DNA of 64,000 nt from contig JAHFGV010000005.1 in assembly GCA_023247255.1 (NCBI GenBank), forward strand, positions 6,067 to 70,066. Reading direction: 5' to 3'. Of this stretch, positions 25,057 to 58,690 are shown piece by piece (positions within the stretch are counted from its first letter, which is position 1; the number at the start of each line of letters is the position of its first letter). The position numbers and the translations under genes were made by a program. Below the pieces are notes generated by a model that saw nothing but the letters and a program-made list of their open reading frames with translations, made no database searches and was not told the DNA's origin. The DNA is from Candidatus Omnitrophota bacterium (GTDB lineage Bacteria > Omnitrophota > Gorgyraeia > Aquiviventales > Aquiviventaceae).

Positions 25057-25107
25057 TAGAAGGATTCCCTGTTGAGCGCTACAGTTAGATATGAAAGGAG
25101 GCGCAGG

Positions 25108-28118: not shown

Positions 28119-28130
28119 AGGAGACGCCTC

Positions 28131-30634: not shown

Positions 30635-30638
30635 CCTG

Positions 30639-32995: not shown

Positions 32996-33032
32996 AATCT
33001 GCCATTTCCGGCTATGATATCTGCGGAGCATC

Positions 33033-34550: not shown

Positions 34551-34627
34551 GCCTGCCCGCCTGTCGTCCAAAAGTGTGATCTGGGTCATAGTTCGTCTCC
34601 CTGCGTTCTGAGAAGATTACTTAGGCG

Positions 34628-36183: not shown

Positions 36184-36269
36184 ATCCTCTAAGACTTAAC
36201 GCCGTGTTGGCGCAAAAACATACCTCGGAGGCGCAAACGTCCTCTGTATGATAAAATAGAAACCTTGCC

Positions 36270-38051: not shown

Positions 38052-39709
38052 AACGCGCCTTTATGACGATTATGACGATGGCGTTATTGTTCGGAGCCTT
38101 GGCGAGATTTATGAGCGTATTCGCAGATCAGCCCGTTGCCCTGCCGCGCGAGGCGCTCGAGACCATACGTCGCATGGCCATCCAACACAATGGACGCAAC
38201 AAACCCTTCGACAGCTTTGCGCGAGAAACCCTCCGACTCATCACCGGCTCAGCGCGCGTGGGAAATGAAGATCCTGTCGAAACCATCTTGACCCTCATGG
38301 CCAGTCCCGACCATGGGCAGCAGTTGCTGCTTGTGTCGGTTCCATTTATCCCTCTGCGAAAGGCTCTGGGCATGGATCCCAAGGCGACGCAGGTGTCCTA
38401 CAACGATTTGGTTGCGACACGCAAGCTCATGCGGCTGCTGCCCCCGATTGTCCAAAAGCAGCAGCGCGAAGAGAAACTTTCGATGCTGGAAGAAGAGACG
38501 ATGGATGTCTTCCAGCGATTTGCCACCCTGAGCACTCTGCTCGAGCAAAAGCTCAACCTCGTGCCTCCACCTGTTGGATCTGCAGAGCGTGTGTGGCAGC
38601 TTGTTGAGGAGCCGTCGGGCTATGCGCCAGCGCAGCAAGAGACCATTCGTACCGCATGGTCCGGGCTGATCGGTGCGGTGCAAGCTGGGCGGGGCGATGC
38701 GGTGATTACCTCAGCGCGTCATGCGGCAGATGCGCTGCGAGATCTGAGCCCTTCTCGCTATCCTCCTCGGTGGCGATTAGCGTTCGAGGTGTTCTACAAC
38801 CACGTCGCGCCATTTCGAATCGCCCAAGGGTTCTATCTGCTCTCAGCGATCCTGTTGTTTCTGAGCCTTGGCGCATTGAAGAAATTCCGGCCAGCGCTTT
38901 TGGGATTTGTCGCTTGCTGCTTCGCGTTTCTCGCGCATGGATCAGGTATCCTGATGCGCGTTGTTCTGGGTGAGCGTCCGCCGGTCTCGAATTTTTTTGA
39001 GACCACGCTGTGGCTGCCGTTCGTCGCAGTCGCCATTGCGCTCATCCTGGAACGTGTGTACCGGACTCGTTACATCGCCCTGGCTGCGGCGATCCTTGCG
39101 ACAATCACCCTGGTTCTCGCGGATCATCTGCCGCTGGACTCGAGCATCTCTCCGGTGGTCGCCGTGCTCCACAGCAATCTCTGGTTGACGATTCACGTGT
39201 TGACCATCGTGGCGAGCTACGGCGCGCTGACCCTGGCGATTGTGCTGGCGCACATGTATGGGGGGATGTACCTGAGTCGCCGCACGAGCGGCTCAACGTT
39301 AGATGCGTTGGGGACATTTCTCTATCGCGTCATCCAAGTCGGCGTCGTGTTATTGGCGGCGGGGATCATGCTGGGCGCCGTGTGGGCCAACGCCTCTTGG
39401 GGCCGTTACTGGGGCTGGGATCCGAAAGAGACCTGGGCGTTGATTACCCTCATCTGGTTCCTGGCGCTGCTGCACGGACGCTTCGCCGGATGGATCAGCG
39501 GTGTTGGCGTAGCCCTGTGCACCGTCGGCGGATTTTTTCTGCTGCTGATGACCTACTACGGTGTCAGCTTCTATCTCGTCGGTCTGCACAGCTATGCCGG
39601 TGCTCATGCCAAGCCCTTGCCCCCAGTTCTCATCGCCTACCTCATCGCTGAACTGGCGTTCATCATCGTGGTGAGCGTCTCAGCCATACTCCGCAGGCGG
39701 CCAGCGTAG
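38048..39709 (+). CDS. ccsA: cytochrome c biogenesis protein CcsA/ResC
   Basis: WWD motif WANASWGRYWGWDPKETWAL. 553 aa with a long N-terminal extension. Confidence 0.85.
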   Translation: MKRAFMTIMTMALLFGALARFMSVFADQPVALPREALETIRRMAIQHNGRNKPFDSFARETLRLITGSARVGNEDPVETILTLMASPDHGQQLLLVSVPFIPLRKALGMDPKATQVSYNDLVATRKLMRLLPPIVQKQQREEKLSMLEEETMDVFQRFATLSTLLEQKLNLVPPPVGSAERVWQLVEEPSGYAPAQQETIRTAWSGLIGAVQAGRGDAVITSARHAADALRDLSPSRYPPRWRLAFEVFYNHVAPFRIAQGFYLLSAILLFLSLGALKKFRPALLGFVACCFAFLAHGSGILMRVVLGERPPVSNFFETTLWLPFVAVAIALILERVYRTRYIALAAAILATITLVLADHLPLDSSISPVVAVLHSNLWLTIHVLTIVASYGALTLAIVLAHMYGGMYLSRRTSGSTLDALGTFLYRVIQVGVVLLAAGIMLGAVWANASWGRYWGWDPKETWALITLIWFLALLHGRFAGWISGVGVALCTVGGFFLLLMTYYGVSFYLVGLHSYAGAHAKPLPPVLIAYLIAELAFIIVVSVSAILRRRPA

Positions 39710-42359: not shown

Positions 42360-42563
42360 ATGACCTGTCCGCTCTGCGGCTTTGCCTTCGGAGAGAGGGA
42401 GCAAACCTGGGCTTGTCAGCGTTGCCCCTTGGCGTCCGGCTGTCGACTTACCCGCTGCCCACGATGCGGCTATGAGTGGGCAGAGGAATCACGGTTGGTG
42501 AACTGGCTCAAAGAGCGCTGGCGTATCCTCGAACGCCCCAACGGTCATGACGATCCATCGTGA
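42360..42563 (+). CDS. small zinc-ribbon protein
   Basis: 67 aa with two CxxC pairs (CPLCG ... CQRCP ... CPRCG). Confidence 0.35.
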   Translation: MTCPLCGFAFGEREQTWACQRCPLASGCRLTRCPRCGYEWAEESRLVNWLKERWRILERPNGHDDPS

Positions 42564-43254
42564 GCAGATTGAAGAGTTGCTGGAGCTGTGCTGGACAGCG
42601 GCAGAGGACGGCCTGGCGCCGCTTGATCGCCACCAGTTGCCGACGCAGCTTCTGTGTTTTCTTCCGCACCCCATTGAGCCAAACGGCGATGTCCAACAGG
42701 AAACTATCGATGTGATGGTTCAGGAAGGACTCCTGTTGAGTGACGGTCGGCGCATCCGATTAAGTGCGACGGGAACGCCCCAGGCCAAAGAGGTGGTCCG
42801 TCGGCATCGCCTTACCGAGGTGCTCCTCCATACCCTCCTTGACATCTCCGAAGAATCTATGGAGTCGACCGCTTGCCAAGTGGAGCATATCCTCAATGCC
42901 GAGGTGACCGAAGCGGTGTGCACATTCCTGGGTCATCCCCCGATCTGCCCGCATGGCCGTGCCATCCCACAGGGCCATTGCTGTGAAACTTCGCGCGCGA
43001 GGCTAGAGCCACTCATTGTTCCTTTAGCTCGCTTAACGATTGGCGAGACAGCGAGCGTCGCGTTTGTACACACCACGCGACACGCCTATCTTCAGCGTCT
43101 GAGCACGTTGGGGCTTGCACCCGGACGGCCCATTCGATTGCGTCAAACGCAACCTGCGCTTGTTGTGCAAGTGGGAGAAACCGAGCTCGCCTTAGATAAC
43201 GAGGCTGGCCAAGAAATCTTCGTGAGGCGAAACCCACACAACACCCCTGCGTAG
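42547..43254 (+). CDS. DtxR/MntR-family metal-dependent regulator fused to a C-terminal FeoA domain
   Basis: RRHRLTEVLLHTLLDISEESMESTACQVEHILNAEVTEAVCTFLGHPPICPHG is the DtxR metal-binding/dimerisation region. The C-terminal LARLTIGETASV ... is FeoA-like. Confidence 0.6.
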   Translation: MTIHREQIEELLELCWTAAEDGLAPLDRHQLPTQLLCFLPHPIEPNGDVQQETIDVMVQEGLLLSDGRRIRLSATGTPQAKEVVRRHRLTEVLLHTLLDISEESMESTACQVEHILNAEVTEAVCTFLGHPPICPHGRAIPQGHCCETSRARLEPLIVPLARLTIGETASVAFVHTTRHAYLQRLSTLGLAPGRPIRLRQTQPALVVQVGETELALDNEAGQEIFVRRNPHNTPA

Positions 43255-43308
43255 CCTTCCACACGACCCAAGTCCCCTGGACGCCGTGTAATCAGAATCT
43301 ATCCATCC

Positions 43309-43581
43309 ATGACTCCCGTCATGGAAGAGCCTAGAGCAGATGCTGTAGGCTTTGATGTGCAGATGGACACAGTGACGGTCCGTGAGAAAATTAAGCGGCT
43401 GAAGACTACTCGACAGGCGCTGAGCTGGTCCGAGGAGGTCTGTGCCTATCACCTGGGCGTGACGTACTCGACCTTGAACCGTTGGGAGCGCGGCGAGTCC
43501 TTGCCGAAGAGCCGCGCGGTGCTCAAAGCGATTGACCAGTTCATTGCCCGGCACAGCAAGGAACAAGTCGGAAGGAGGTAA
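43309..43581 (+). CDS. XRE-family HTH protein
   Basis: [29 protein letters not shown] is HTH_3-like. Its start lies within a palindromic motif. Confidence 0.4.
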
Positions 43582-43586
43582 CAGGC

Positions 43587-43760
43587 ATGTTTGGGAATAT
43601 TGGGTTTCCAGAGCTGTTGGTGATTTTGTCGATCGTGCTCCTCCTCTTTGGGGCCAAGCGGCTGCCGGAGATTGCGCGTGGCTTGGGGAAGTCGCTCTCT
43701 GAATTCAAGAAGGGACTGAAGGAGATCGAGCACGACGTCAACGATGTCAAGAAGGTCTGA
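43587..43760 (+). CDS. tatA: twin-arginine translocase subunit TatA/E
   Basis: 57 aa [49 protein letters not shown] ggaaggagg. Not in the supplied ORF track because it is under 60 aa. Confidence 0.7.
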
Positions 43761-43766
43761 GCGAAG

Positions 43767-45365
43767 GTGGCGGCTCCGGTCAACCGGCCGATGACGGAAG
43801 CGTTGAGGATGCGTCTCGGTATGCTGATTGCGGTGGTTGCGCTAGGCTCAGGGTGCGCCAAGGAGCCATCCGCAACACTCTCGAGCGCGAAACCGTCTGT
43901 GACCCCGCAGATCGTTGAAATGGGCCGGCGGCTTTACAACAAGCAGTGCGCGGTCTGTCATGGCCCGAAGGGCGCGGGCGACGGCCAGGCAGCTTACCTC
44001 CTCTATCCTAAGCCGCGCGATTTCACACAAAACGAATTCCGACTTGTCTCGACCAGCACGATGCAGGCCACCGATGAAGATCTGTTTCTCACCATTACCC
44101 GTGGGACGCCCGGCTCCGCGATGCCCTCCTGGGAGACGCTGACGTCGGAGCAGCGCTGGGCGTTGGTGTATTACGTTCGCCACCTCACGGGTGCGAGCGA
44201 ATCCATTGATCCAGCCTCAATCATCCACGTCCCTCCAGAGACGCCGAAGACCCCCGAGAGCATCGCGCGTGGCCGCCAAATTTTTGTCCAGGCGTGCGCG
44301 TCCTGCCATGGGCCACAAGGCCGCGGTGATGGGCAGCAGGTCATGGCGGACAACGCCGGATATCCTATCAAGCCACGCGATCTCACCGCAGGCGTCTTTA
44401 AGGGGTCGTCTGAGAGCAACGATTTGTATTACCGAATTGTCGCTGGATTGCCGGGCAGCCCGATGCCAAGTTACGCTGACGTCTACACCGACGAGCAGTT
44501 GTGGGATCTCATCCACTACGTTCAATCGCTCGTACCGTCGGGAGTCGAGGATCGCGTCCGCATGCATGCACGGAGCATCCGCGCCCATCGGGTCAGAGGC
44601 GACATCCCATTAGAACCGACAGCGAAAATCTGGAGCACGAGACAACCGGTCTCTATCGCCCTCACACCATTGTGGTGGCGCGATCACCGAGTCGAAGGGG
44701 TCGAGGTCAAAGCGTTGCACAACGGCAAAGAGCTCGCGCTTCAATTGTCATGGAACGACCAGACGCGTGACAACTCGACCCTCACCCCGCAGGCGTTTTC
44801 CGATGGTGTCGCGGTAGAATTCTCCTTAGAACAGGACCCGCCGTTCTTTGGGATGGGTGACGCAAACGGAGTCGTGCAGATATGGCACTGGAAAGCCTCC
44901 TGGCAGGAGGACCTCAAGGGCTGGCAGGACGTGGAGACCGCCTACCCCAATGCTGCCGTGGATTGGTATCCCGCACAGCGTGACTATCAGCACGGTGAAC
45001 CCTCCGAGGTGAGCCAGTCGAGGACGGCCTCGCAGGACCCACGGTTCATGGGCGGATGGGGAGCGGGCAATCCCCTCTCCGATCCGAATCGAACGTCAGC
45101 GGCTGAGGAAGCGATGGCCAAGGGATTGGGGACGCTGACCTCACGCGCACCTTCGATGCAACGGATCCAAGCGGATGGTCTCTGGCAAGACGGTCGGTGG
45201 CAGGTCGTGCTGCATCGACCGCTTGCGCCCAACGAGGAGGGGGATCTGAGGCTGAAGCCTGGGCAGCAAGTCAGCGCGGCGTTTGCGATCTGGGATGGCC
45301 ATGCCGGGGATCGCAACGGCCAAAAGAGCGTGTCGATTTGGAACATCTTGGAGCTGGAGCGATAG
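43767..45365 (+). CDS. dihaem cytochrome c fused to an NxrC/EbdC-like (DMSO-reductase type II gamma subunit) domain
   Basis: Two CxxCH motifs (CAVCHGPKGAGDGQ, CASCHGPQGRGDGQ) in tandem cytochrome c domains. The C-terminal roughly 250 aa (WWRDHRVEGVEVKALHNGKELALQLSWND ... VQIWHWKASWQ) resembles the ethylbenzene dehydrogenase / NxrC gamma family. Confidence 0.6.
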   Translation: MAAPVNRPMTEALRMRLGMLIAVVALGSGCAKEPSATLSSAKPSVTPQIVEMGRRLYNKQCAVCHGPKGAGDGQAAYLLYPKPRDFTQNEFRLVSTSTMQATDEDLFLTITRGTPGSAMPSWETLTSEQRWALVYYVRHLTGASESIDPASIIHVPPETPKTPESIARGRQIFVQACASCHGPQGRGDGQQVMADNAGYPIKPRDLTAGVFKGSSESNDLYYRIVAGLPGSPMPSYADVYTDEQLWDLIHYVQSLVPSGVEDRVRMHARSIRAHRVRGDIPLEPTAKIWSTRQPVSIALTPLWWRDHRVEGVEVKALHNGKELALQLSWNDQTRDNSTLTPQAFSDGVAVEFSLEQDPPFFGMGDANGVVQIWHWKASWQEDLKGWQDVETAYPNAAVDWYPAQRDYQHGEPSEVSQSRTASQDPRFMGGWGAGNPLSDPNRTSAAEEAMAKGLGTLTSRAPSMQRIQADGLWQDGRWQVVLHRPLAPNEEGDLRLKPGQQVSAAFAIWDGHAGDRNGQKSVSIWNILELER

Positions 45366-45367
45366 CC

Positions 45368-48300
45368 ATGTATCTGACGCGTCGTCAGTTTTTAAAACTC
45401 TCAGGAGCTACTGGAATCGGGTTGTATCTCGCCTCACGCGAGGTCTCGCTCTGGGCGCTGGAGCCGGTGAGCGAGATAGAGAATCCGCTCGCCTACTATC
45501 CTTCGCGAGACTGGGAGAAGCTCTACCGCGACCAGTACCGGTATGACAGCACCTTCTCCTGGGTCTGCTCGCCCAACGACACGCACGCCTGCCGGGTCCT
45601 GGCGTACGTGAGAAACGGCGTCGTGGTGCGTCTTGGCTCAGAGTACAACTATGAAACCTACGCCGACCTGTACGGAAACAAGGCCACTCCCAACTGGAAC
45701 CCGCGCCAGTGCGCCAAAGGTTTCACCTTTCATCGGCTCATCTACGGTCCTTACCGCTTGAAACATCCCATCATCCGTAACGGTTGGAAGCGCTGGGCCG
45801 ACGACGGATTCCCAACGCTGACCCCTGAGAAAAAGACACAATACAAGTTTGACTCGCGCGGCACAGACACTTTTGAAAAAATCAGTTGGGAGGATATCTA
45901 CGGCTACATTGCCCGCGGCCTCATCGCTATCGCTACGCGCTACAGCGGCGAGCCGGGCATAACACTCCTGCGCGCACAGGGCTATCCCGAGGAAATGATC
46001 CAAGCGATGGGTGGGGCCGGGACACGGACCTTGAAGTTCCGCGGCGGGATGGGCCTGCTTGGGGTGTTTGGCAAGTACGGCATGTACCGACTGGCGAACA
46101 CGATGGCGCTTCTCGATGTCCACCTGCGCGGTGTCAAGCCTGAGGAGGCGAAGGCCGGACGGACGTGGTCCAACTACACGTGGCACGGCGATCAGGCGCC
46201 GGGGCATCCCTGGGTGCATGGATTGCAGAACGCCGACTGCGATTTCAACGACCTTCGTTTTTCCAAGCTGATCATCCAGGACGGCAAGAACCTCTGCGAG
46301 AACAAGATGACCGACTCGCACTGGTTCATTGAATGTATGGAGCGTGGGGCAAAGCTGGTGACGATCGCGCCCGAATACAGCCCGCCGGCGTCGAAGTCGG
46401 ACTATTGGATTCCGATTCGCCCGCAGACCGATGCCGCGCTCTTCTTGGGTATCACGCGCCTCATGATCGACCGAGGCTGGTACGACCGGGAGTTTATCCT
46501 GAACTTCACCGACTTTCCGCTCTTGGTGCGAACCGACACCCTGCGGCGCCTTCGAGCGAATGAGATCCTGCCGGGCTACCAAGGGCAGTTGTCCAAGGAC
46601 GGCCCAAGCTACAAGCTCCAGGGATTGAAGGACGAGCAGTATGCCAAGTTGGGGGACTTCGTCGTCTGGGATGAATCCTCCGGAGCGCCCGCCGCAATCA
46701 CACGCGACGACGTCGGCAAGCGTCTCGTACAGAAAGGCGTCCACCCCGCGCTTGAAGGGACGTTTACACTCAACACGGTGGATGGGAAGCGTATTGAGGT
46801 GATGACGCTCTTTTCGCTCTATCAACTCCACCTCAAGGACTACGACCTTGATACCGTGCATGAGATCACTCGCGCGCCGAGAGAGCAGATCGAACAACTC
46901 GCGAAGGACATCGCCACTATCTCGCCAGTCGCGATCCACCAAGGCGAGGGCATCAACCACTACTTCCACGCCACCGAGGCCAATCGCGCCGCCTATCTGC
47001 CGCTGATGCTGACCGGCAACATCGGCCAACGCGGTGCTGGCTGCTACGGATGGGCCGGCAACTACAAGGCTGCGCTTTTCCAAGGCTCTCCATGGACCGG
47101 TCCGGGATTCAAAGGCTGGGTGGCCGAGGATCCGTTTGAGCCTAACCTTGACCCCAACGCGCACGGGAAAGACATCCACGCGCACGCCTACTTCAAGGAC
47201 GAAGAGCCGGCTTATTGGAACCACGGGGATAAGCCGCTGATCGTCGAGACGCCCAAGGGCGGCCGCAAGGTCTTCACCGGCAACACTCACATGCCCACAC
47301 CCACAAAGGCGATGCTTTTCACCAACGTGAACCTCATCAACAATGCCAAGTGGGTCTATGAGATGCTCAAGAACGTCAACCCGAATGTCGAGATGATCCT
47401 TTCTATCGACATCCAAATGACCGCTTCGATCGAATACGCGGACTTAGCACTGCCGGCGAATAGCTGGCTTGAGTTCGAGGGGCTGGAGGTTACGGCGTCA
47501 TGCTCCAACCCTTTCCTCCAGATCTGGAAGGGCGGGATTCCGCCTGTGTTCGACAGCCGGGATGATCTGGTGATTCTCGCCCAGATCGCCGAAGCGCTCG
47601 GCAAGGAAATCGGCGATACGCGCTGCAGCGACTACTGGAAGTTTGCGCTCGAGGGCAAGCGCGAAGTCTACATCCAGCGGCTGCTGGATTCCTGCACGAC
47701 GACGGTTGGCTATCGTCTGGAGGACATCATGGCGGGCAAGTACGGGCCGCCGGGGGCGGCACTCATGCTCTTTCGCACCTATCCCCGGATCCCCTTCTGG
47801 GAGCAGGTGCACGAGGACTTACCTTTCTACACCGACCACGGGAGGCTTTCGGCCTACACCGATGTGCCCGAGGCGATCGAGTACGGCGAGAATTTCATCG
47901 TCCACCGTGAAGGTGCGGAGGCGACACCCTACCTGCCGAACGTCATCGTCAGCAGCAACCCGTACATCCGCCCCAACGATTACGGTATTCCCTTATCGGC
48001 GGAGCACTGGGATGACCGCACGGTGCGCAACGTGAAGATGCCGTGGGATCAGGTCAAAGGCACAAAGAATTTCCTCTGGGAAAAGGGCTTTCAGTTTTAC
48101 TGTCTAACTCCCAAGAGCCGCCATCGCGTCCACTCGCTTTGGAGCAACGTGGACTGGCACCAAATCTGGGACTCCAACTTCGGCGATCCCTACCGGATGG
48201 ACAAACGCAGCCCTGGTGTTGGCGAACACCAGGTTCACATGAATCCCCAGGCGGCAAAGGATTTAGGGATCAATGACGGCGATTACGCCTATGTCGATGC

Positions 48301-48820
48301 GAATCCAGCAGATCGTCCCTACATTGGGGCGAAACCTGACGATCCGTTCTATCGGGTGGCGCGGCTGATGCTGCGTGTCAAGTACAACGCAGCCTACCCG
48401 TACAACGTCGTCATGATGAAGCACGGGACCTATATTGCCACCGAGAAATCTGTGAAGGCCCACGAGACGCGCAAGGATGGACGGGCCCTCTCCGCTGACA
48501 CCGGCTACCAGGCGAACTTCCGCTACGGGTCGCAGCAGAGTGTCACGCGCAACTGGCACATGCCGATGCACCAGACCGACTCACTCTTCCACAAGGCGAA
48601 GGTCTTCATGGGCTTTCTCTTCGGCGGCGAGGCGGACAATCACGCGGTCAACACGGTTCCGAAAGAGACGCTGGTGCGCGTGACGAAAGCGGAAGACGGC
48701 GGGTTGGGTGGCCAGGGCGTGTGGGCTCCGGCGACGACCGGCTATACCCCGGCCAACGAGAACGACACGATGAAGAAGTACCTCGAAGGCCGGTTCGTTG
48801 AGGAGAGCAAGAAATGGTAA
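45368..48820 (+). CDS. nxrA: periplasmic molybdopterin oxidoreductase alpha subunit, nitrite oxidoreductase/NarG-like (type II DMSO reductase family)
   Basis: 1150 aa with a twin-arginine signal MYLTRRQFLKLSGATGIGL. N-terminal Fe-S motif region (CSPNDTHAC). Large Mo-bisMGD domain. Size and neighbourhood (nxrB, narJ-like, nxrC-like) match a periplasmic NXR. Confidence 0.8.
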   Translation: MYLTRRQFLKLSGATGIGLYLASREVSLWALEPVSEIENPLAYYPSRDWEKLYRDQYRYDSTFSWVCSPNDTHACRVLAYVRNGVVVRLGSEYNYETYADLYGNKATPNWNPRQCAKGFTFHRLIYGPYRLKHPIIRNGWKRWADDGFPTLTPEKKTQYKFDSRGTDTFEKISWEDIYGYIARGLIAIATRYSGEPGITLLRAQGYPEEMIQAMGGAGTRTLKFRGGMGLLGVFGKYGMYRLANTMALLDVHLRGVKPEEAKAGRTWSNYTWHGDQAPGHPWVHGLQNADCDFNDLRFSKLIIQDGKNLCENKMTDSHWFIECMERGAKLVTIAPEYSPPASKSDYWIPIRPQTDAALFLGITRLMIDRGWYDREFILNFTDFPLLVRTDTLRRLRANEILPGYQGQLSKDGPSYKLQGLKDEQYAKLGDFVVWDESSGAPAAITRDDVGKRLVQKGVHPALEGTFTLNTVDGKRIEVMTLFSLYQLHLKDYDLDTVHEITRAPREQIEQLAKDIATISPVAIHQGEGINHYFHATEANRAAYLPLMLTGNIGQRGAGCYGWAGNYKAALFQGSPWTGPGFKGWVAEDPFEPNLDPNAHGKDIHAHAYFKDEEPAYWNHGDKPLIVETPKGGRKVFTGNTHMPTPTKAMLFTNVNLINNAKWVYEMLKNVNPNVEMILSIDIQMTASIEYADLALPANSWLEFEGLEVTASCSNPFLQIWKGGIPPVFDSRDDLVILAQIAEALGKEIGDTRCSDYWKFALEGKREVYIQRLLDSCTTTVGYRLEDIMAGKYGPPGAALMLFRTYPRIPFWEQVHEDLPFYTDHGRLSAYTDVPEAIEYGENFIVHREGAEATPYLPNVIVSSNPYIRPNDYGIPLSAEHWDDRTVRNVKMPWDQVKGTKNFLWEKGFQFYCLTPKSRHRVHSLWSNVDWHQIWDSNFGDPYRMDKRSPGVGEHQVHMNPQAAKDLGINDGDYAYVDANPADRPYIGAKPDDPFYRVARLMLRVKYNAAYPYNVVMMKHGTYIATEKSVKAHETRKDGRALSADTGYQANFRYGSQQSVTRNWHMPMHQTDSLFHKAKVFMGFLFGGEADNHAVNTVPKETLVRVTKAEDGGLGGQGVWAPATTGYTPANENDTMKKYLEGRFVEESKKW

Positions 48821-49521
48821 ACGAGAGCCGCGCTTACCGCAATCGATGGAAATATCTATGTGCAGGGCTTACGAGCGTCATGCTCGTTCTAGGACTCACT
48901 CCAATGAGCTGGGCGAGGGATGATCTCCAGGTGTGGAATACCATCGAGCTCAGCAAGCGGCTCGGTCCACATTGGGAGGTGTTTTTCCTTCCGGAGATAC
49001 GGATACGCGATGATGCGGGCGAGTTCTTTTACCACGAGTACCGCCAGGGTGTGCGCTACAAGCCCTCCAAACACTGGCAACTCGGGCTCAATTACCTATT
49101 CGTTCGCAACGAGTCCTCCGGCAAACCGCTCGAGGAGCATACCGGCGAGCTCGACCTCACGCCTAAAACGACGCTAGGCCCCCTCGAGGTCTCTCTGCGA
49201 GGGCGGCTGGCGCTGCGGACCATTCAAGGCAGCACCGGCGAGCAGGAATGGCAGTTTCGAGTGATGCCGAAGGTCGCGTATCCGACCCAGTTCGTCGGTC
49301 ACAAGCTCATCCCCTACGCCGCCGATGATCTGTACTACGACTACACCCGCGACGCGTGGAACCAGAACCGGGTGTTCCTTGGTCTTGCCATCCCCATGGG
49401 CAAGGCGCTTGGCGCCGAGACGACGGTGGATGTCTACTACATGCTCCAGAGTCAACTCGGCAAACGGCACGACTGGAGCAGCAGCCACGTCCTGGGGACG
49501 AAACTGAGTGTCAGATTTTGA
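48814..49521 (+). CDS. hypothetical secreted beta-rich protein (possible small outer-membrane barrel, DUF2490-like)
   Basis: Signal peptide, alternating hydrophobic pattern and a C-terminal ...LSVRF. Start overlaps the nxrA stop (ATGGTAA). Confidence 0.4.
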   Translation: MVNESRAYRNRWKYLCAGLTSVMLVLGLTPMSWARDDLQVWNTIELSKRLGPHWEVFFLPEIRIRDDAGEFFYHEYRQGVRYKPSKHWQLGLNYLFVRNESSGKPLEEHTGELDLTPKTTLGPLEVSLRGRLALRTIQGSTGEQEWQFRVMPKVAYPTQFVGHKLIPYAADDLYYDYTRDAWNQNRVFLGLAIPMGKALGAETTVDVYYMLQSQLGKRHDWSSSHVLGTKLSVRF

Positions 49522-49541
49522 CGAGATGAGGCGTGTGAGCG

Positions 49542-49818
49542 ATGCCGTATAAGGAACCCGAACCGGATGATCCTTTGGAGCTGACGGGAGTCGTCCTACC
49601 TGCTTCGGACGAGACGTCACTGAAGGAAATGGCCGTGTGTTTCGTCGAAGAGTTCCTGCGCGACGGCTGGTCGGATGAGCAGCTTCGTGCGATGTTCCGC
49701 AATCCCTACTACCGAGGTCCCTACCTCGTGTGGCGGCAGAAGGGCGATGCATACGTGGAGGCTGTGATCCAGGAAGTCCGTCACATCTGGCGCCCCAACG
49801 CAGCCGGAGGAGCGACTC

Positions 49819-49826
<8 letters not shown>
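49542..49826 (+). CDS. small hypothetical protein translationally coupled to nxrB
   Basis: 94 aa. Stop overlaps the nxrB start by 8 nt. No recognisable family. Confidence 0.35.
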
Positions 49827-51057
<1,231 letters not shown>

Positions 51058-51087
51058 ATTTTGCTGCGCAACATTTATTAACCGGAT

Positions 51088-51867
51088 ATGAATCCTACGA
51101 TAAATCTTCCTTCGGAAAATTTAATTGAGGACCTGCTGGCGAGAAGCGCCGTCTATCATGCGCTGTCGCTGCTGCTGCGCCATCCAGACGCGGCCGCCAT
51201 GAAGTGGCTGTCGATGCGGGAATATCAGCGGCTGGCTGAGGTCGTGGAGATGCTGACGAAGGAACGAAAGGGATCATTGCACGAGGCTGTGCGGTATATG
51301 ATGACGGCGTTCGAGGGGGTGTCGATTGCGGAGTGGACCCGCGACTATGAACGGATCTTCGGACACTCGGTCCAGAGCGCGGCGCCACCCTATGAACTGG
51401 AGTACGGCGAGGAGCACAGCCATCGGCAGCCGCAGGAGCTGGGCGATATCGCGGCATTCTATCGAGCGTTCGGCCTTCGCGTGGCCTTTGCCTCGCATGA
51501 GCGGATCGATCATATCGTCACGGAGTGCGACTTCATGCAGTACCTGCTCTATAAGCAAGCCTGTGCACTTGATGAGGGGAGCGAGGAGCGGGCGGATGTG
51601 TGCGAAACGGCAGCCCAGCAGTTCCTCGCTGATCACCTCGGTCGCTGGGGTCCGGCCTTTGCCCTAAGACTCTCGCGAGCGGCTGAGCAGAGAGTCTTGG
51701 GAGCGCTTGCCGATACGACCCTGGCATGGCTGGTGCAGGATTGCGAGCGTATGCAGGTGCCTACCGGATCACGCGACCTCCCGCTGCGACTGCCCAAGGA
51801 ACGGGATGAGGTGGGATGCGCAGCGTGCGCACCTCAGCAGCTAGGAAATACTGATGGCAAGCGTTGA
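51088..51867 (+). CDS. NarJ/TorD-family redox enzyme maturation chaperone
   Basis: 259 aa. LARSAVYHALSLLLRHPD ... AAFYRAFGL ... is the TorD/NarJ helical fold signature. Confidence 0.6.
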   Translation: MNPTINLPSENLIEDLLARSAVYHALSLLLRHPDAAAMKWLSMREYQRLAEVVEMLTKERKGSLHEAVRYMMTAFEGVSIAEWTRDYERIFGHSVQSAAPPYELEYGEEHSHRQPQELGDIAAFYRAFGLRVAFASHERIDHIVTECDFMQYLLYKQACALDEGSEERADVCETAAQQFLADHLGRWGPAFALRLSRAAEQRVLGALADTTLAWLVQDCERMQVPTGSRDLPLRLPKERDEVGCAACAPQQLGNTDGKR

Positions 51868-52801
51868 TGTCCAGTTTGATCCAGCATTTGTGGAAGAGAC
51901 GGTTTTCCTTGAATTGAGGAACCGGGAAGCCCTCGGCAATTGCGCGATGGCGCAGGCGTTTCATGTACAGCGCAGCGCCCTCTATGACACCACGACCGCA
52001 ACAGGCGAGCGCGAGGCGCGATTTCAGCAGCTGGCAGCCCGCTATTTCCAGGAGCTTGGATTCTCCGAGCTCTTTGCGAAACGGTTCGAAGAGTTTCCGC
52101 TGATCGGAGCGCATGTTCCTGTTGCGCTGGTGCGACGCGCCTGGAGCCGCAAGGAAGAGCGCGTTGAGTTATACGTTCCCCCTACGCCCGGTGGGGGCTC
52201 AAGCCTCAAAGCTTTTCCGACGCTGTGGATCGGTTTTCAGGTCGCCCGGTGCTTAAATCGCGAGCAGCTCGTGGCGTTCCTGCGGCATGAGCTCATGCAC
52301 ATCTCTGATATGTTTGACCCGGCGTTCGGGTACCAACCGCATCCAGACTTCGGCGCGGAGTGTGAAACAGAAGAGGACCTAATCCGTAAGCGCTTCCGAT
52401 TGCTGTGGAACCTCGTTGTGGATGGGCGGATGCGCCGGAAGGGCTGGCCGGCCGTTGACCATGGAACGACACGTCTTCGGGAGTTTGAGCGGGCGTTTGC
52501 CTCCTGGGACCCGCAGCGCCGCGAGGCGGTGTGGCCGGATCTTGGCAACCGAGCATCCTGCACGCAACGTGAGCTCCTGGAACTGGCGAAGGACGAACGT
52601 CTCACCCGGATGCTGGGGCAAGGCGGCGTTCGCTGCCCCTTGTGCCATTTTCCGACGCGGGAGGGCGTGTGCGATTGGCGTGGCGAACGCGCGGCTGTTG
52701 CTGAAGCGATCCAAACGGATTACGCCTGGTGGGATCCGGTTCAGGGAGCATGCCGGCAGTGCTTCGAGTTGTATCGCGCAAGGCTACCGGTGATGGGATG
52801 A
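51854..52801 (+). CDS. hypothetical HExxH-motif protein with C-terminal Cys-rich zinc ribbon
   Basis: FLRHELMHISDMF (HExxH) and C-terminal CPLCHFPTREGVCDW ... CRQC. SprT-like metalloprotein is a possibility. Confidence 0.4.
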   Translation: MASVDVQFDPAFVEETVFLELRNREALGNCAMAQAFHVQRSALYDTTTATGEREARFQQLAARYFQELGFSELFAKRFEEFPLIGAHVPVALVRRAWSRKEERVELYVPPTPGGGSSLKAFPTLWIGFQVARCLNREQLVAFLRHELMHISDMFDPAFGYQPHPDFGAECETEEDLIRKRFRLLWNLVVDGRMRRKGWPAVDHGTTRLREFERAFASWDPQRREAVWPDLGNRASCTQRELLELAKDERLTRMLGQGGVRCPLCHFPTREGVCDWRGERAAVAEAIQTDYAWWDPVQGACRQCFELYRARLPVMG

Positions 52802-53172
52802 CGCGCGAAGACGCAAATGCGACGAACGGCGAAATCAATCGGCGCACGTTTCTCGCCTCGGCGCCTCGGCACCTGCTGGACGGGCTGAGAGCGCTGATGA
52901 GCGATCTCAGAGGGCTCTCGCCGCCTGTCTTGGATGACCAGGCATGGCCGCTTCCTCGAAAGGTGGCGATGCTGGATGTCTCGCGGTGTCTCGCGTGGGG
53001 AGGAGGGGGCTGTCAGGTGTGTTATCTCCGGTGTCCCCTGCGTGAGCGTGCGATGGTGTTTGAGGATGGCAAACCAACGGTGGTGGCTTCCATGTGCGAC
53101 GGCTGTGGTGTCTGTGTCGAGGCGTGCGAAGCCGTCAATGACCTTGGAGCGATGACGCGTGTGAGTGTATGA
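52798..53172 (+). CDS. TAT-signal ferredoxin-like protein
   Basis: RRTFLASAP twin-arginine motif. Cys clusters CQVCYLRCP and CDGCGVCVEACE. Confidence 0.5.
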   Translation: MTREDANATNGEINRRTFLASAPRHLLDGLRALMSDLRGLSPPVLDDQAWPLPRKVAMLDVSRCLAWGGGGCQVCYLRCPLRERAMVFEDGKPTVVASMCDGCGVCVEACEAVNDLGAMTRVSV

Positions 53173-53888
53173 CGCGCGTCAGGGTTCTTTGGGGTGTGAT
53201 CGCGTAGGGTACGTGGTGGGATGACAATTCGAAACGACGCTCCGAGTTCAGCGACCTAAGCTCGCGTGATGGCGGGGATGGTCCCTGAACCCCTGTCCCA
53301 CACGCAACGCCGCGTGTAGGACCGGGCCGGGAAGGAAACGACTCGGCCTCCTCGTGTTCGGAAAGGAGACGGCAGGCTGGAGTATCGTCAAGCCAGCTTC
53401 TCTTTCCACACGAGGAGCTGGCTTGTTTCGTCACTGAGGGACGGTACCCGATGCAGGAACAACGTGTGACGCTCTGGTGCAAGGTGTTGGGTCGGCTGGT
53501 TGAGGTGGTCATCGCCAGGAATCACCATGCCCAGCCACCAGTCCCAGGGGTCCCTGAAGGCTGGAAGGTAACGGAGTGTCTGGAGAAAGACACGCCGTGT
53601 TTTGGCAAGGGCTGTCCGTTCACTACGGATGGTGGAGAGTCCCCCTTTGGGGAGGCGGGCGAGCTGCCCGATCTCTCCTCTGAGTCGTTCGATCCGCTCG
53701 CTGAACCAGGGTCTGAGGGAAAGGGTAGTTGACCCCACCACCTGTCTGTCAAGGCAGCTCCGTTGTTCCACGCTGACAGGATGCCTTGATGGACGTGACA
53801 GGGAATCGGACACGATGTTTCGGTATACAGTAAAAAGATTAGTAGGCACGTCCAAGACCGCCGTCTGCGGTTCCAGCCAGGTGGTGCG

Positions 53889-54875
53889 GTGATGGGCGCA
53901 CTCTGCGATCGGTTTGGCCGTCGCATCGAGTACCTGCGCATCTCGGTGACGGATCGGTGTAACCTCCGCTGCATCTATTGCCTGCCGGCGTGCGGAATCA
54001 AGTGGCTGCCGCGCGAGGAGATCCTGCGGTTTGAGGAGATCCGGGAAATCGTTCGCGTTGGGATAGCCCTGGGACTCACCCATGTGCGGCTGACCGGCGG
54101 CGAGCCACTCATCCGCGAAGGCCTTGCCGAGCTCGTCCAGATGCTCGCGGCGATCCCACACCTCGAAGACCTCTCCTTGAGTACGAACGGGGTGTTGCTC
54201 TCGCGAGACGCGAGGACGCTTGCGCGCGCCGGCCTTCGGCGCGTCAACATCAGCCTCGACACGCTAAAGGCTGAGCGGTTTCATGCCATCACGCGCTTCG
54301 GCGCGGTGTCCGATGTCCAGGCGGGGATTGAAGCTGCCTTGGAAGTGGGGCTTGATCCGGTCAAGCTCAATGTCGTGGTCATGCGCGGAATCAACGACGA
54401 TGAACTCGTTGAACTGGGTCGCCTCACAATCGATCGACCACTCCATGTGCGCTTTATCGAGCTGATGCCCATCGGGGATTTCTTCTCACGGGAGCGCCTG
54501 GTGCCGTCCGAGGAAATCCTCGCGTGTCTGGGCGCGTTGGGTGAGCTGTGGCCGAGTAGTGGCCCAGGTGGTTGCGGCCCGGCGAGAACGTTTGCGTTGG
54601 ACAAAGCGCAGGGAACCATCGGCATCATCGGGGCGGTAACGCAGGCCTTCTGTGCGCAGTGCAATCGGCTTCGGCTGACGGCAACCGGCCAGTTGCGGCC
54701 GTGTCTTGATGATACCGCAGCGGTTGATCTCAAACCCGCGCTGCGCCCCGCGATTGATCCCGGGCGGCTCGCTGAGTTGGTGCAACAGGCCGTAGAAGCA
54801 AAACCAGAGCAGCACAGCATGGCGCAACGGGATGCGGGGACCCCCCGCTTCTGCATGGCGGGAGTCGGCGGATGA
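53889..54875 (+). CDS. moaA: GTP 3',8-cyclase (molybdenum cofactor biosynthesis protein A)
   Basis: Radical-SAM CNLRCIYC and C-terminal Cys cluster CAQCNRLRLT. 328 aa. Confidence 0.85.
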   Translation: MMGALCDRFGRRIEYLRISVTDRCNLRCIYCLPACGIKWLPREEILRFEEIREIVRVGIALGLTHVRLTGGEPLIREGLAELVQMLAAIPHLEDLSLSTNGVLLSRDARTLARAGLRRVNISLDTLKAERFHAITRFGAVSDVQAGIEAALEVGLDPVKLNVVVMRGINDDELVELGRLTIDRPLHVRFIELMPIGDFFSRERLVPSEEILACLGALGELWPSSGPGGCGPARTFALDKAQGTIGIIGAVTQAFCAQCNRLRLTATGQLRPCLDDTAAVDLKPALRPAIDPGRLAELVQQAVEAKPEQHSMAQRDAGTPRFCMAGVGG

Positions 54876-55348
54876 AGATGGTTTCGACGCAGCGTCGACA
54901 CAACGCGCAGGTGCGCATGGCGGATGTAAGCGCGAAGTCCCCAATCCTCCGGACGGCGGTGGCGCGGTGTGAACTGGTGATGAAGCCAAGGACGCTGGCG
55001 ACCATTAAGGCGGGCAAACTGCCAAAGGGCGATGTATGGCCGGTCGCCCAGGTCGCGGGGATTCTGGCGACGAAGCGAACGGCCGAGCTCATCCCCCTGT
55101 GCCATCCAATTTCAATCAACCATGTCACCTTGCGTCAGGAATTGAATGGGCGATGTGTGACAATTGAAGCTGAGGTCACCACGACGGCGCCCACAGGCCC
55201 GGAAATGGAAGCCCTGACGGCGGCGGCCGTCGCGGCGCTTACGGTCTACGACATGTGCAAAGTCATCGAACGGGGCATCGTGATTCGACAGCTGTATCTG
55301 GTGAGCAAGTCAGGTGGTAAGAGCGGCACGTGGAGGCGACATCAGTAA
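54872..55348 (+). CDS. moaC: cyclic pyranopterin monophosphate synthase MoaC
   Basis: 158 aa with MoaC-like conservation (RMADVSAK ... LIPLCHPI ... ALTVYDMCK). Confidence 0.85.
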   Translation: MKMVSTQRRHNAQVRMADVSAKSPILRTAVARCELVMKPRTLATIKAGKLPKGDVWPVAQVAGILATKRTAELIPLCHPISINHVTLRQELNGRCVTIEAEVTTTAPTGPEMEALTAAAVAALTVYDMCKVIERGIVIRQLYLVSKSGGKSGTWRRHQ

Positions 55349-55584
55349 TGTGGTCACGCTGTTGGTGGGCGACCTGGGTGTCAGGGTTCTTCGGGATCGC
55401 CGGTGTCTTGCATGTGGCGAGGTTCTTCTTCCGCGTTCCCGTGCGGGTCGGGACGTATGATGTCCCGCTCAGGGTCAGCGTGCTGGTTGGCGTGGTGTTC
55501 GTCAGCATCTCAGCGGGGTTGCTCTGGATCGAGGTCCAGCGTGAGCGAACCAAGCGTCGCTCAGTGGGAGAACAGAAGGCGTAA
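55330..55584 (+). CDS. small hypothetical membrane protein
   Basis: Two predicted TM helices between moaC and mogA. Weak. Confidence 0.3.
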   Translation: MEATSVMWSRCWWATWVSGFFGIAGVLHVARFFFRVPVRVGTYDVPLRVSVLVGVVFVSISAGLLWIEVQRERTKRRSVGEQKA

Positions 55585-55585
55585 G

Positions 55586-56068
55586 ATGACGTGGGAGGTG
55601 GGGATTCTGACCGTCAGCGACACGCGCTCTCAAGGCATCCGGGCAGACACGGCGACAGCGCTCATCCGCCAACTCTTGGAGAAGGCCGGGTTTGCGGTGT
55701 GCGAGACCCTCCTGGTTCCAGATGATGTCCGGCAGATTCAAGAGCTGCTCATCGACTTCGCCGATCGGCGGAAGCTTCCACTCGTTATCACAACCGGGGG
55801 GACAGGCTTTGGGCCACGCGACGTGACCCCGGAGGCGACGTGTCGTGTGATCGAACGCGAGGTGCCGGGTTTGCCTGAAGCGATGCGAGTGGCCACGGCA
55901 GAACGAAATCCTCTAGCTTGGTTATCACGTGGCGTGGCGGGACTGCGAGGCCGCACCCTGATCGTCAATCTCCCAGGTAATCCCGATGGCGCAATGGAGT
56001 GCTTAGAGGCGCTCCTGCCGCTATTGCCGCATGCACTTGAGATGGTCAACGGATGCGCTCATGGGTGA
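55586..56068 (+). CDS. mogA: molybdopterin adenylyltransferase MogA/MoaB-like
   Basis: Start MTWEVGILTVSDTRS ... ITTGGTGFGPRDVTPEA ... NLPGNP. Confidence 0.7.
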   Translation: MTWEVGILTVSDTRSQGIRADTATALIRQLLEKAGFAVCETLLVPDDVRQIQELLIDFADRRKLPLVITTGGTGFGPRDVTPEATCRVIEREVPGLPEAMRVATAERNPLAWLSRGVAGLRGRTLIVNLPGNPDGAMECLEALLPLLPHALEMVNGCAHG

Positions 56069-56705
56069 CCATCAGCACCACGCGCAGACCATTCGGCACT
56101 TTGGGCACCTGGCCGCCCACTACGACCATCGGCATCGGCACTATAACCAGGTGACCTTGAGCCGGGCGGTGGAAGCGCTAAAGCTCTCTCCGGCGGGATG
56201 TGTGCTCGACGTGGGGTGTGGGACCGGGGAGCTGATGCGGCTCGTGCAGAGTCACCATCCGCAGGCAACCCTCGTCGGGATCGGTGTGACGCCTGAGATG
56301 ATTGCGGTCACACGGGAGAAATTTCAGCACGTGCCTCGGGTGAGGTTGTGCCTCGCGGAAGCCGAGGCGCTGCCGTTTGCTGCGGAAAGTTTCGAGGCGG
56401 TCGTCTCCTGTAACATGTTGCATCATGTGCACGCGATCGACCAGTTGTTTCGCGAATGTGCGCGGGTCCTGCGACCCCAGGGTCAATTGGTCGTTGTCGA
56501 CTGGTCCCGGGACTTCTGGCACTGCCAGCTGGCCCACTACTGTCTCCGTCTTGTCAAGCGTAGCTACGTGAAGATGTACCGCGCGTCCGAACTCGTCAAG
56601 CTCGCTGCGCCGCTTGGCCTAGCCGTGGAGGATGTCAGCCGGTTCTTCGTGCCACCCTATTTCGGGATGATGCGGGTGGTGGCCACAAGGCAGGAGACGC
56701 CTTGA
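56061..56705 (+). CDS. class I SAM-dependent methyltransferase
   Basis: VLDVGCGTGELMRLV (motif I), LPFAAESFEAVVS, RVLRPQGQLVVVD. Start MGDHQ overlaps the mogA stop. Confidence 0.6.
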   Translation: MGDHQHHAQTIRHFGHLAAHYDHRHRHYNQVTLSRAVEALKLSPAGCVLDVGCGTGELMRLVQSHHPQATLVGIGVTPEMIAVTREKFQHVPRVRLCLAEAEALPFAAESFEAVVSCNMLHHVHAIDQLFRECARVLRPQGQLVVVDWSRDFWHCQLAHYCLRLVKRSYVKMYRASELVKLAAPLGLAVEDVSRFFVPPYFGMMRVVATRQETP

Positions 56706-56706
56706 G

Positions 56707-57440
56707 ATGGACGGCCTGTGGTGGCTTGTCCCTGTGTTTTTTGTGATTGCCCTGGCATACGCTTCGGTGGGGCACGGGGGCGCATCGGGGTATCTGGCGG
56801 CGCTGTCGTTTTTCGCCTTCTGTCCGGATGAAATGGCCACGACGGCGCTCACGTTGAATCTCTTCGTAGCTGGCATAGCCCTGATGAGCTTTGCGCGGGC
56901 AGGCCATTTTGTCGGCCGACTCACGTGGCCGTTTGTCGTCGCGTCGGTCCCAGCCGCTTTTCTGGGAGGGCTCATCCCTGTGTCGGTTCGCTTCTATCAG
57001 GTGCTGCTCGCGATCGCCTTGGGCGTGGCGGCGGTCCGTCTTTCCCTGGATCTCCGTGGCCGAGAAGAGGGTCGTGTCGTGAGGCCCAGCTTGGCGCTCG
57101 CGTTGCCGACCGGCGGCGGAATCGGGTGGCTCTCGGGAGTAGTCGGCGTAGGAGGAGGGATTTTCCTGAGCCCCTTTCTGCTGTTATTGCGCTGGGCTAC
57201 CCCAAAGCAGACAGCCGCCGCTTCAGCCGCGTTCATCCTCATCAATTCAGCCGCCGGTCTTTGCGGGCGGTCAGATCCGGCCTTGAGTATGGAACCCTGT
57301 GGCCGTTGCTCGCAGCCGCCCTGATCGGTGGATGGGTTGGCGCACACCTGGGCGCGAACCATTTCTCTGGACAGATACTAAAACGGCTCCTGGCGGTCAT
57401 ACTTCTCATCGCAGCTGCCAAGTTGCTTATCAGCCAATGA
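56707..57440 (+). CDS. TauE/SafE-family anion exporter (interrupted by a frameshift near 57268)
   Basis: Frame 1 matches TauE through NSAAGLCG. The -1 frame continues with the conserved C-terminus SGLEYGTLWPLLAAALIGGWVGAHLG ... LLIAAAKLL. The shift lies in a GGG run. Confidence 0.55.
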
Positions 57441-58690
57441 GCGCACACAGGACACAGGTTCACGTTTCGGCACCCCGCCTCACCCGTGTTGACGAAGCCA
57501 GACGCATCGTGCTGGCGCAGGCCACGACGCTTGGCCCAGAACGGGTGCGGTTGGAGGATGGCATCGGCCGGGTCCTTGCGCAAGACGTCATCGCCGAGGC
57601 GAGCTTACCTCCCTTTGACAACTCGGCGATGGATGGCTATACCGTTCGATCCGCCGATACGGCTGGTGCGTCACGAGAACAACCCGTGAGGCTGAAGCTT
57701 GTCGGTAAGGTGGCTGCTGGTCAGACGCTGGAACGTGAGGTCAACCGAGGCGAGGCGGCCAAGATCATGACCGGGGCGCCGCTTCCGATCGGGGCCGATA
57801 GCGTCGTGATGTTAGAAGAAGCGCGGTTCCGTGATGGGATCGTCGAGATCCGAAGTCCCGTGGCGCCTGGGAGCCACATCCGCAAAGTAGGTGAGGATAT
57901 CCCGGCGGGCAACAGCGTCCTCACGGCGGGGTCCCGGATTCGCCTCCAGCATCTCGGTCTGCTCGCTGGGTTGGGATATGCGACGCTTCCGGTCTATCGC
58001 TCGCCCACCGTCGTGGTCCTGGCGACCGGCAGCGAACTCGTGAACATCGACGAGCCACTGGCGCCAGGAAAGATCCGCAACTCCAACGGCTTGGTGCTGG
58101 CTGCCCTCCTGCGCCAGCTTGGGATCCAGCCCCTTGATCTGGGCACGGCGGTTGATGAACGAGTGCGCATCCAGCGAAAGCTCCAGGAAGCTGCCGCGTC
58201 TGACGTCATCCTGATTTCTGGAGGCGTGTCAGTTGGCGAACACGATCTCGTGAAGCGCATTCTGCGGGATCTGGGGATGGAGATATTCTTCTGGCGGGTC
58301 AACATGAAACCCGGAAAGCCGCTGCTCTTCGGGCGCTGGCGAGGCAAAGTGATATTTGGGTTGCCAGGCAATCCCATTTCCTGTGTGGTGTGTTTTCTGG
58401 AATTCATCAGTCCGTTTCTGAGAAAAGTGATGGGGGAACGGGACGTGGATCAGGGACGGGTTCACGCACGGCTCACTCAGTCGATCAGGAAGAAAGAGCC
58501 ACGTAGGCAACTCTTCACGGCGAAGCTCGAAGAGGATCAGGGCGGGCTTTCGGTGACGCCGACACCGCAGCAGGGCTCAGGGATGCTCAACAGCCTTGCG
58601 CAGGCGAATGCCTTCATCGTCGTTCCTGAGGAAACGATGCGACTTGAGGCCAGTGATCTCGTCGAAGTCCTACCACTGTGGGGTGACTGA
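57437..58690 (+). CDS. moeA: molybdopterin molybdotransferase MoeA
   Basis: About 417 aa from MSAHRTQ. MoeA-like (GKIRNSNG, ISGGVSVGEHD). Confidence 0.8.
   Translation: MSAHRTQVHVSAPRLTRVDEARRIVLAQATTLGPERVRLEDGIGRVLAQDVIAEASLPPFDNSAMDGYTVRSADTAGASREQPVRLKLVGKVAAGQTLEREVNRGEAAKIMTGAPLPIGADSVVMLEEARFRDGIVEIRSPVAPGSHIRKVGEDIPAGNSVLTAGSRIRLQHLGLLAGLGYATLPVYRSPTVVVLATGSELVNIDEPLAPGKIRNSNGLVLAALLRQLGIQPLDLGTAVDERVRIQRKLQEAAASDVILISGGVSVGEHDLVKRILRDLGMEIFFWRVNMKPGKPLLFGRWRGKVIFGLPGNPISCVVCFLEFISPFLRKVMGERDVDQGRVHARLTQSIRKKEPRRQLFTAKLEEDQGGLSVTPTPQQGSGMLNSLAQANAFIVVPEETMRLEASDLVEVLPLWGD

Follow-up and report, generated by a model that had tools for sequence, protein, structure and literature searches.

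What are two small open reading frames (ORFs) doing between the genes for the α (nxrA) and β (nxrB) subunits of a nitrite oxidoreductase (NXR)? NXR makes almost all nitrate on Earth, and to our knowledge the assembly of its periplasmic form is poorly understood. The question arises from a 64,000-nucleotide (nt) stretch of a Candidatus Omnitrophota contig (JAHFGV010000005.1), referred to here as the window, whose numbering is used throughout for the window's own genes. An earlier note on the same DNA had reported the two ORFs at 48814–49826, and both its coordinates and the overlaps that it described are exact. ORF1 (48814–49521, plus strand, 235 amino acids [aa]) encodes a predicted outer-membrane, 12-stranded β barrel of the DUF2490 family. 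ORF2 (49542–49826, plus strand, 94 aa) encodes a small acidic protein, cytoplasmic by sequence, of a family without a name or a Pfam model. On balance we think it probable that ORF2 is an ancestral member of this operon that acts as an escort factor and that ORF1 is a recently inserted passenger.

The junctions between these genes are tight. The α gene ends ...AAG AAA TGG TAA at 48820, and the ORF1 ATG at 48814 lies inside this end, giving the overlap ATGGTAA. ORF1 ends at 49521 and is separated from the ORF2 start by a 20-nt spacer, while ORF2 ends at 49826 and overlaps the β start at 49819 by 8 nt. Shine-Dalgarno-like motifs precede all three ATG codons: GAGGAG 8 nt upstream of ORF1, GAGG 10 nt upstream of ORF2, and GGAGGA 7 nt upstream of β. 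ORF length is weak evidence here, because the minus strand of the same region, at 59% GC, also holds a 235-aa ORF (49174–49881), and spurious frames of this kind are the one argument for regarding one or both ORFs as chance readings of GC-rich DNA. We consider the likelihood of this negligible. First searches returned 95 homologs for ORF1 and 63 for ORF2, ORF1 scores above the Pfam threshold, both structure models are confident, and the ratio of nonsynonymous to synonymous substitution rates (ω) is well below 1 in the annotated frames, with stops in the others. Compared in six frames across four orthologous loci, ORF1 is the only stop-free frame and has the lowest ω (0.31, with one stop-filled antisense frame at 0.33). 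Both ORFs are real genes, a case that rests on conservation and selection, and the junction sequence, the homologs, and ω bear out the view that they belong to a packed operon with overlapping stops and starts.

The host enzyme is an NXR of the periplasmic type, because its α subunit (45365–48820, plus strand, 1151 aa, an NxrA-type molybdopterin enzyme with a Pfam Molybdopterin domain) aligns along its entire length with Kuenenia stuttgartiensis NXR-A (KsNXR-A; PDB 7b04_B) and scores 1847.8 bits, where the next family, of the perchlorate reductase type, reaches 185 bits, and because it carries the motif CSPNDTHAC, which corresponds to Cys67, Asn70, and Asp71 of KsNXR-A. In that enzyme, Asn70 is a substrate ligand and Asp71 a ligand of the FS0 cluster (PMC8387239). 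The α N terminus, MYLTRRQFLKLS, is a twin-arginine translocation (Tat) signal with an RRQFLK twin-arginine motif; its Pfam TAT_signal score of 16.5 bits is below the 22.7 cut-off. The β subunit (49819–51057, plus strand, 412 aa) is an NxrB-type iron-sulfur protein (NCBIfam DMSO_red_II_bet, 1.5e-77; Pfam Fer4_11), and members of its 90% cluster carry the name “nitrate oxidoreductase subunit beta.” The locus combines the features of the Nitrospira/Nitrospina/anammox-type enzyme, namely an NXR-A-clade α subunit, a Tat signal, the Asn and Asp of C-x2-N-D, a β subunit, a heme-b γ subunit, and a TorD-type δ chaperone. Kuenenia NXR runs in both directions (PMC8387239), and similar enzymes in groundwater genomes have been interpreted as serving nitrate respiration (10.1101/765248). 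The host enzyme may serve either nitrite oxidation or nitrate reduction.

Of the two ORFs, ORF2 is the conserved one. All 18 distinct loci that we examined have it immediately ahead of nxrB, and it was between α and β in every one of the 11 loci that a genome scan yielded from as many GTDB species genomes; these 11 are labeled Omnitrophota or Omnitrophica WOR_2, Planctomycetes, Nitrospinota, and, in one probably misbinned case, “Thermoplasmata.” The same position is kept by family members at about 40–49% identity (L042, L044, and L045), as well as in L049 (a contig of 44% GC), Armatimonadota (L050), and Chloroflexi CSP1-4 (L051). Except in L018, the end of ORF2 and the start of β either overlap or are no more than 37 nt apart. 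The 63 homologs of the first search are 55–96% identical to ORF2, and their alignment has a mean column identity of 60%. Among 1.84 billion cluster representatives, a profile search picked out 469 clusters (50% identity) at E ≤ 1e-3, 209 of them at E ≤ 1e-10, and a broader profile reached about 1,325 proteins at E ≤ 1e-5. The ω of ORF2, 0.055–0.11, indicates strong purifying selection and compares with 0.045–0.09 for β. We regard ORF2 as an ancestral and conserved part of this operon type.

The family lacks a name. Every named ORF2 relative, distant ones included, is called “hypothetical protein”; ORF2 belongs to no Pfam or NCBIfam family, none of the 63 first homologs has a Pfam family, and a Pfam scan of 32 diverse relatives gave only scattered chance matches. 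Sequence comparison with solved structures returned nothing below E = 1, and we found no description of the family in the searchable literature. Nor did we find there any account of a small ORF in the nxrA–nxrB interval of Nitrospina or “Omnitrophica.”

Genes at the corresponding position are known from other bacteria with NXR. In Kuenenia, kustd1701 and kustd1702 lie between nxrA (kustd1700) and nxrB (kustd1703) and are transcribed with the cluster, with no product of either seen in the proteome (PMC6423088). Uncharacterized ORFs therefore also separate the α and β genes of the enzyme studied most closely in this NXR clade, a likeness of position. In Nitrobacter, nxrX (norX) lies between nxrA and nxrB and is thought to help fold NXR (PMC4786786). 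These cases, together with a small ORF between the two genes in every clade locus that we examined, contradict the premise of the earlier note that nxrA and nxrB are normally adjacent; nor can both ORFs be called unexpected, since ORF2 is a conserved element of the operon type. As an accessory gene between α and β, nxrX resembles ORF2 by analogy of position, not by homology: NxrX is a peptidyl-prolyl isomerase homolog that belongs to a cytoplasmic-type NXR, whereas ORF2 has no Pfam match and belongs to a periplasmic-type operon. Assignment of ORF2 itself as an NxrX-type peptidyl-prolyl isomerase (rotamase) was rejected, with no such domain in ORF2 or the 32 diverse relatives.

What might ORF2 do? 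The protein has no signal peptide and is acidic, with an isoelectric point (pI) of 4.8. Its AlphaFold2 model comprises a disordered N terminus bearing the motif D-D-P-x-E-L-x-G, followed by a core of three helices with a predicted local distance difference test score (pLDDT) above 90. Chaperones of the NapD and NarJ/TorD types are likewise small, cytoplasmic, and free of signal peptides, and are encoded within the operon beside the subunit that they serve, as ORF2 is beside β. ORF2 differs from NarJ/TorD in its predicted three-helix bundle and in having a separate TorD-type chaperone already present at 51088–51867. A direct assignment of ORF2 to the NarJ/TorD/DmsD chaperones was rejected: it has no Nitrate_red_del (PF02613) match, and that domain resides in the 51088–51867 gene instead.

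We infer that ORF2 is a cytoplasmic assembly or escort factor, because it is cytoplasmic by sequence, made just before NxrB, and distinct from the TorD-type chaperone. NxrB lacks a signal peptide of its own, and its export via Tat is believed to take place in complex with NxrA (PMC3578206). In the mechanism that we propose, ORF2 would be synthesized immediately ahead of the iron-sulfur subunit, usually with translational coupling to it. NxrB would need to be loaded with its iron-sulfur clusters and docked on NxrA before the pair leaves via Tat, and at this cytoplasmic stage ORF2 may assist the assembly or escort of NxrB or of the α-β complex. What weighs against this proposal is the nature of its support, which comes from where the gene lies, from the missing signal peptide, and from the analogy to other operons for molybdoenzymes.

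The strict co-location of ORF2 with α and β, its usual translational coupling to β, and a sequence as constrained as that of β would also suit a small structural subunit, one that is exported with α-β by hitchhiking and stays in the periplasmic enzyme. Purified and crystallized Kuenenia NXR, however, consists of A, B, and C subunits only, with kustd1705 (NXR-T) additionally present in purified tubules (PMC8387239), an observation that counts against a subunit role only if Kuenenia has an ORF2 homolog. Because the purified enzyme has this composition, the kustd1701 and kustd1702 products are not enzyme subunits in Kuenenia, and the comparison says only this. The two Kuenenia ORFs at this position are, moreover, transcribed without being detected in the proteome (PMC6423088). 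We regard a subunit role as quite unlikely.

The 3′ end of ORF2 contains the β ribosome-binding site, and its stop overlaps the β start, so that ORF2 could instead be a regulator or a translational coupling device setting the α:β ratio, and not a chaperone. The protein is small and helical, and its weak structural matches include nucleic-acid-binding helical domains. A regulatory role might also be read into one family member, P0250 (310 aa, from a Logan contig of 1,260 base pairs), whose C-terminal extension of ∼200 aa appears hemerythrin-like by eye and hints at a possible link to metal or oxygen sensing. A pure coupling device, however, needs no cross-phylum conservation of amino acids at ω < 0.1, and an acidic protein of pI 4.8 is unfavorable for nucleic-acid binding. 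We judge this explanation very unlikely and retain the assembly or escort role for ORF2.

ORF1 presents a different picture. It matches DUF2490 (PF10677) at 86.9 bits, against a gathering cut-off of 29.8, over profile positions 2–182 of 186, and all of the ORF1 homologs listed carry PF10677 except P0095, the weakest. The protein opens with a Sec signal peptide of approximately residues 1–34, MVNESRAYRNRWKYLCAGLTSVMLVLGLTPMSWA followed by RDD, in which a basic region, a hydrophobic region, and the boundary SWA/RDD can be read from the sequence. The AlphaFold2 model is all-β, with 12 strands and a pLDDT of 89, and the C terminus, ...SVRF, ends in Phe. These features agree with the 235-aa, signal-peptide-bearing protein with β-barrel-like periodicity and a C-terminal Phe that the earlier note had described. 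Its family guess divides: DUF2490 proved correct, and the OmpW-like alternative was rejected, as Pfam gives no OmpW match and the model has 12 strands, not 8.

The closest fold to the ORF1 model is that of NanC/KdgM, which are 12-stranded monomeric outer-membrane channels, and the model is consistent with this 12-stranded barrel fold. Membership in the KdgM/NanC family was rejected by sequence (8–10% identity and no Pfam match). According to the homolog alignment and the strand positions of the model, the strand residues whose parity faces the lumen include invariant Arg, Glu, and Tyr, so that the conserved lumen residues of ORF1 are mixed, in contrast to the basic tracks of KdgM/NanC. ORF1 shares with other DUF2490 proteins the Sec signal peptide, the barrel, and conserved internal charged residues. 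We know of no DUF2490 member with an assigned function, and ORF1 offers a natural setting for learning what such a barrel does. DUF2490 has been entered as TC 1.B.81, a putative family of porins with unknown function (PMC4827864), and a 2026 preprint describes a buried Arg/Glu/Tyr charge (salt-bridge) network in many DUF2490 models (10.64898/2026.07.29.741452). We found neither a link between DUF2490 and NXR nor a DUF2490 gene inside an nxr operon in the searchable literature, in keeping with the earlier statement that a small outer-membrane or periplasmic β protein within an NXR operon is undescribed.

The two intervening ORFs differ sharply in their conservation across nxr loci, which the earlier note had proposed comparing: ORF2 is present in all 18 loci examined for it, and ORF1 stands between α and ORF2 in only 4 of 21 distinct loci (the window, L007, L024, and L025). 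These four are close relatives, with ORF1 85–89% and α 91–94% identical. In a second group (L001, L032, and L033), a 64% identical ORF1 ortholog follows ResB and CcsA and lies upstream of the nxr cluster. Other relatives occupy different surroundings: one at 81% identity lies directly after a gene for a major facilitator superfamily (MFS) transporter, one at 69% is flanked by endonuclease III and NUDIX genes, and one at 55% adjoins a gene for a TonB-dependent receptor. At 11 further loci (55–72% identity), five of them on contigs shorter than 4 kb, there is no nxr gene within at most 10 kb on each side. The MFS transporters beside DUF2490 relatives (L046 and L004), when compared with NarK, gave weak matches and no nitrate or nitrite link. 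Within the 90% cluster of ORF1, P0434 and P0437 have the same mature barrel sequence with a different signal peptide, which suggests that their upstream junction may differ.

The junction between α and ORF2 is an insertion hot spot, with other insertions in other lineages. In Omnitrophica WOR_2-type loci (L008 type; 9661–10014 in L008), it is occupied by a 117-aa ORF containing long hydrophobic stretches, and in two distant loci by an opposite-strand, PIN/VapBC-like pair (6253–6922 in L042 and 6295–6946 in L044). The 117-aa ORF was considered as a DUF2490 remnant and rejected, as tblastn with ORF1 finds nothing there and the ORF has no family. The ORF1 boundaries showed neither insertion scars nor target duplications.

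In all six pairs of the four loci, the synonymous divergence (dS) of ORF1 is 0.14–0.27 with ω of 0.25–0.40, and that of α plus β is 0.3–1.5 with ω of 0.05–0.09. The synonymous divergence of ORF1 is therefore ∼2–6 times below that of its flanks, yet its protein is less constrained. Codon bias and dual coding are ruled out as causes, because codon usage in ORF1 is ordinary (effective number of codons, 47.8) and no second coding frame was found over it. On the simplest reading, the ORF1 segment is of later origin than the genes beside it and may have spread by recombination through homologous flanks. Against this, conversion from paralogous nxr copies, inflating the divergence of α and β, could also explain the low dS of ORF1.

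The start of ORF1 is also variable: the window has an ATG, other cluster members have theirs one codon downstream, and L024 and L025 have a GTG that overlaps TGA. In L007 (6961–7066), the window's closest relative, ATC replaces ATG and there is no ATG, GTG, or TTG upstream of the ORF1 signal peptide, whose codons are still in frame and conserved. For four members of the 90% cluster, including the L007 copy, the gene call begins only at an internal Met and gives 205 aa.

Given this narrow distribution and the younger age of its segment, ORF1 is most likely a passenger gene, not an enzyme component: a DUF2490 barrel that would have been inserted recently into the α-ORF2 junction in one narrow lineage and that would share a transcript with NXR and, in the genome at hand, be coupled to α in translation. 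The earlier argument that such coupling implies expression with the enzyme is upheld to the extent that both genes belong to a coupled operon; it does not extend to ORF1 as part of the enzyme, which is at odds with its restriction to four close loci, the unrelated contexts of its relatives, and an eroded start codon in some of them. Several observations weigh against passenger status. ORF1 is under purifying selection (ω ∼0.3), and with a good ribosome-binding site and an ATG here it is probably made whenever NXR is. Its proximity to nxr, moreover, takes two forms, one within the operon and one immediately upstream, which could reflect a functional link rather than chance.

Such a link could take the form of a dedicated outer-membrane nitrite/nitrate channel, recruited to the operon for joint production with the enzyme. 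In an NXR of this type the substrate site is on the periplasmic side, and substrate must therefore cross the outer membrane; ORF1 belongs to a listed putative porin family (TC 1.B.81; PMC4827864), overlaps the α stop with a ribosome-binding site of its own, has a counterpart just upstream of the nxr cluster in a second lineage, and directs conserved Arg, Glu, and Tyr toward the predicted lumen. Nitrite, however, normally passes general porins, and the lumen charges are balanced, with the salt-bridge network of DUF2490 models (10.64898/2026.07.29.741452) suiting a closed barrel rather than an open anion pore. The gene is in the operon in only 4 of the 21 loci, most of its close relatives are in unrelated contexts, and the start codon is missing or non-canonical in several orthologs. 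A channel role for ORF1 is possible, the distribution data do not support it, and we consider it unlikely; the passenger interpretation is preferred.

Interest at this locus accordingly moves from the β barrel to the small gene. An unnamed gene fixed directly upstream of nxrB across several phyla, with more than 1,000 homologs, is a concrete candidate assembly factor, and it may be a clue to what at least one unexplained Kuenenia ORF at the same position is. The DUF2490 insertion is less important for NXR, and shows that the junction between α and the small gene repeatedly takes foreign genes. A bolder proposal is that ORF2 founds an undescribed, phylum-spanning family of maturation factors required for the assembly and export of periplasmic NXR and that ORF1 is a DUF2490 channel recruited to feed the enzyme its substrate. 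We hold this combination to be doubtful, if conceivable; were it true, ORF2 could be the missing ingredient for heterologous NXR production, and the channel role of ORF1 would be the first function for DUF2490.

Around the two ORFs, the region is a single operon for a periplasmic, Tat-exported nitrite/nitrate oxidoreductase. At the head of the packed run is tatA (43587–43760, plus strand), a place where related loci have homologs with the Pfam domain TatA_B_E; by tblastn, identity is 75–94% in most of these loci and 51% in L020. The γ subunit (43767–45365, plus strand, 532 aa) follows, a diheme cytochrome c fused to an EB_dh-type heme-b domain (Pfam EB_dh, 2.1e-27, and Cytochrom_C, 9.4e-27; NCBIfam DMSO_red_II_gam, 3.6e-40). 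This fusion of two cytochrome c domains with EB_dh recurs in nearly all related loci that include the gene, and the Chloroflexi CSP1-4 locus (L051) has an EB_dh protein only. Downstream of β lies the NarJ/TorD-type δ chaperone (51088–51867, plus strand, 259 aa; Pfam Nitrate_red_del, 1.4e-19; NCBIfam DMSO_red_II_cha, 1.8e-22). Base composition is even across the region. In a scan of 43000–53500, promoter-like and terminator-like sites were not in excess of those in shuffled sequence, and the stretch 48800–49830 gave no terminator on the plus strand.

Two additional genes follow the chaperone. A conserved 315-aa protein (51854–52801, plus strand), which follows the chaperone in most related loci, matches no Pfam or NCBIfam family above threshold, its sole family signal being a weak metallopeptidase-like match. 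A small 4Fe-4S ferredoxin-like protein (52729–53172, plus strand; Pfam Fer4_10, 3.6e-06) keeps its position in related loci. Both look like further uncharacterized accessory genes of this operon type. Molybdenum cofactor genes begin at 53889, and the stretch from 53889 to 60644, after the nxr genes, holds MoaA, MoaC, MoaB, a TauE-like gene, and MoeA, together with a TatC homolog; in related loci, the cofactor block continues with MobB, MoaD, and MoaE. The tatA head, the nxr genes, and the cofactor genes form a self-contained island for enzyme, cofactor, and export that is conserved in related loci.

Upstream of this island, a respiratory block (24117–39709) encodes a Crp/Fnr regulator, HemA, several multiheme cytochromes c, a cytochrome b, a NapC/NirT-like protein, a multiheme-cytochrome b561 fusion, and ResB/CcsB cytochrome c maturation proteins. 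Crp/Fnr-type regulators also flank several of the related nxr clusters. A 686-aa protein at 28131–30191 is without a Pfam family. Between the ATP synthase/citrate transporter region and the respiratory block lies a DDE transposase (DDE_Tnp_4; 21135–22136). Finally, a 67-aa ORF at 42360–42563, between feoB and a DtxR/FeoA-type gene, matches no NCBIfam family and has four CxxC pairs in a zinc-ribbon-like arrangement.

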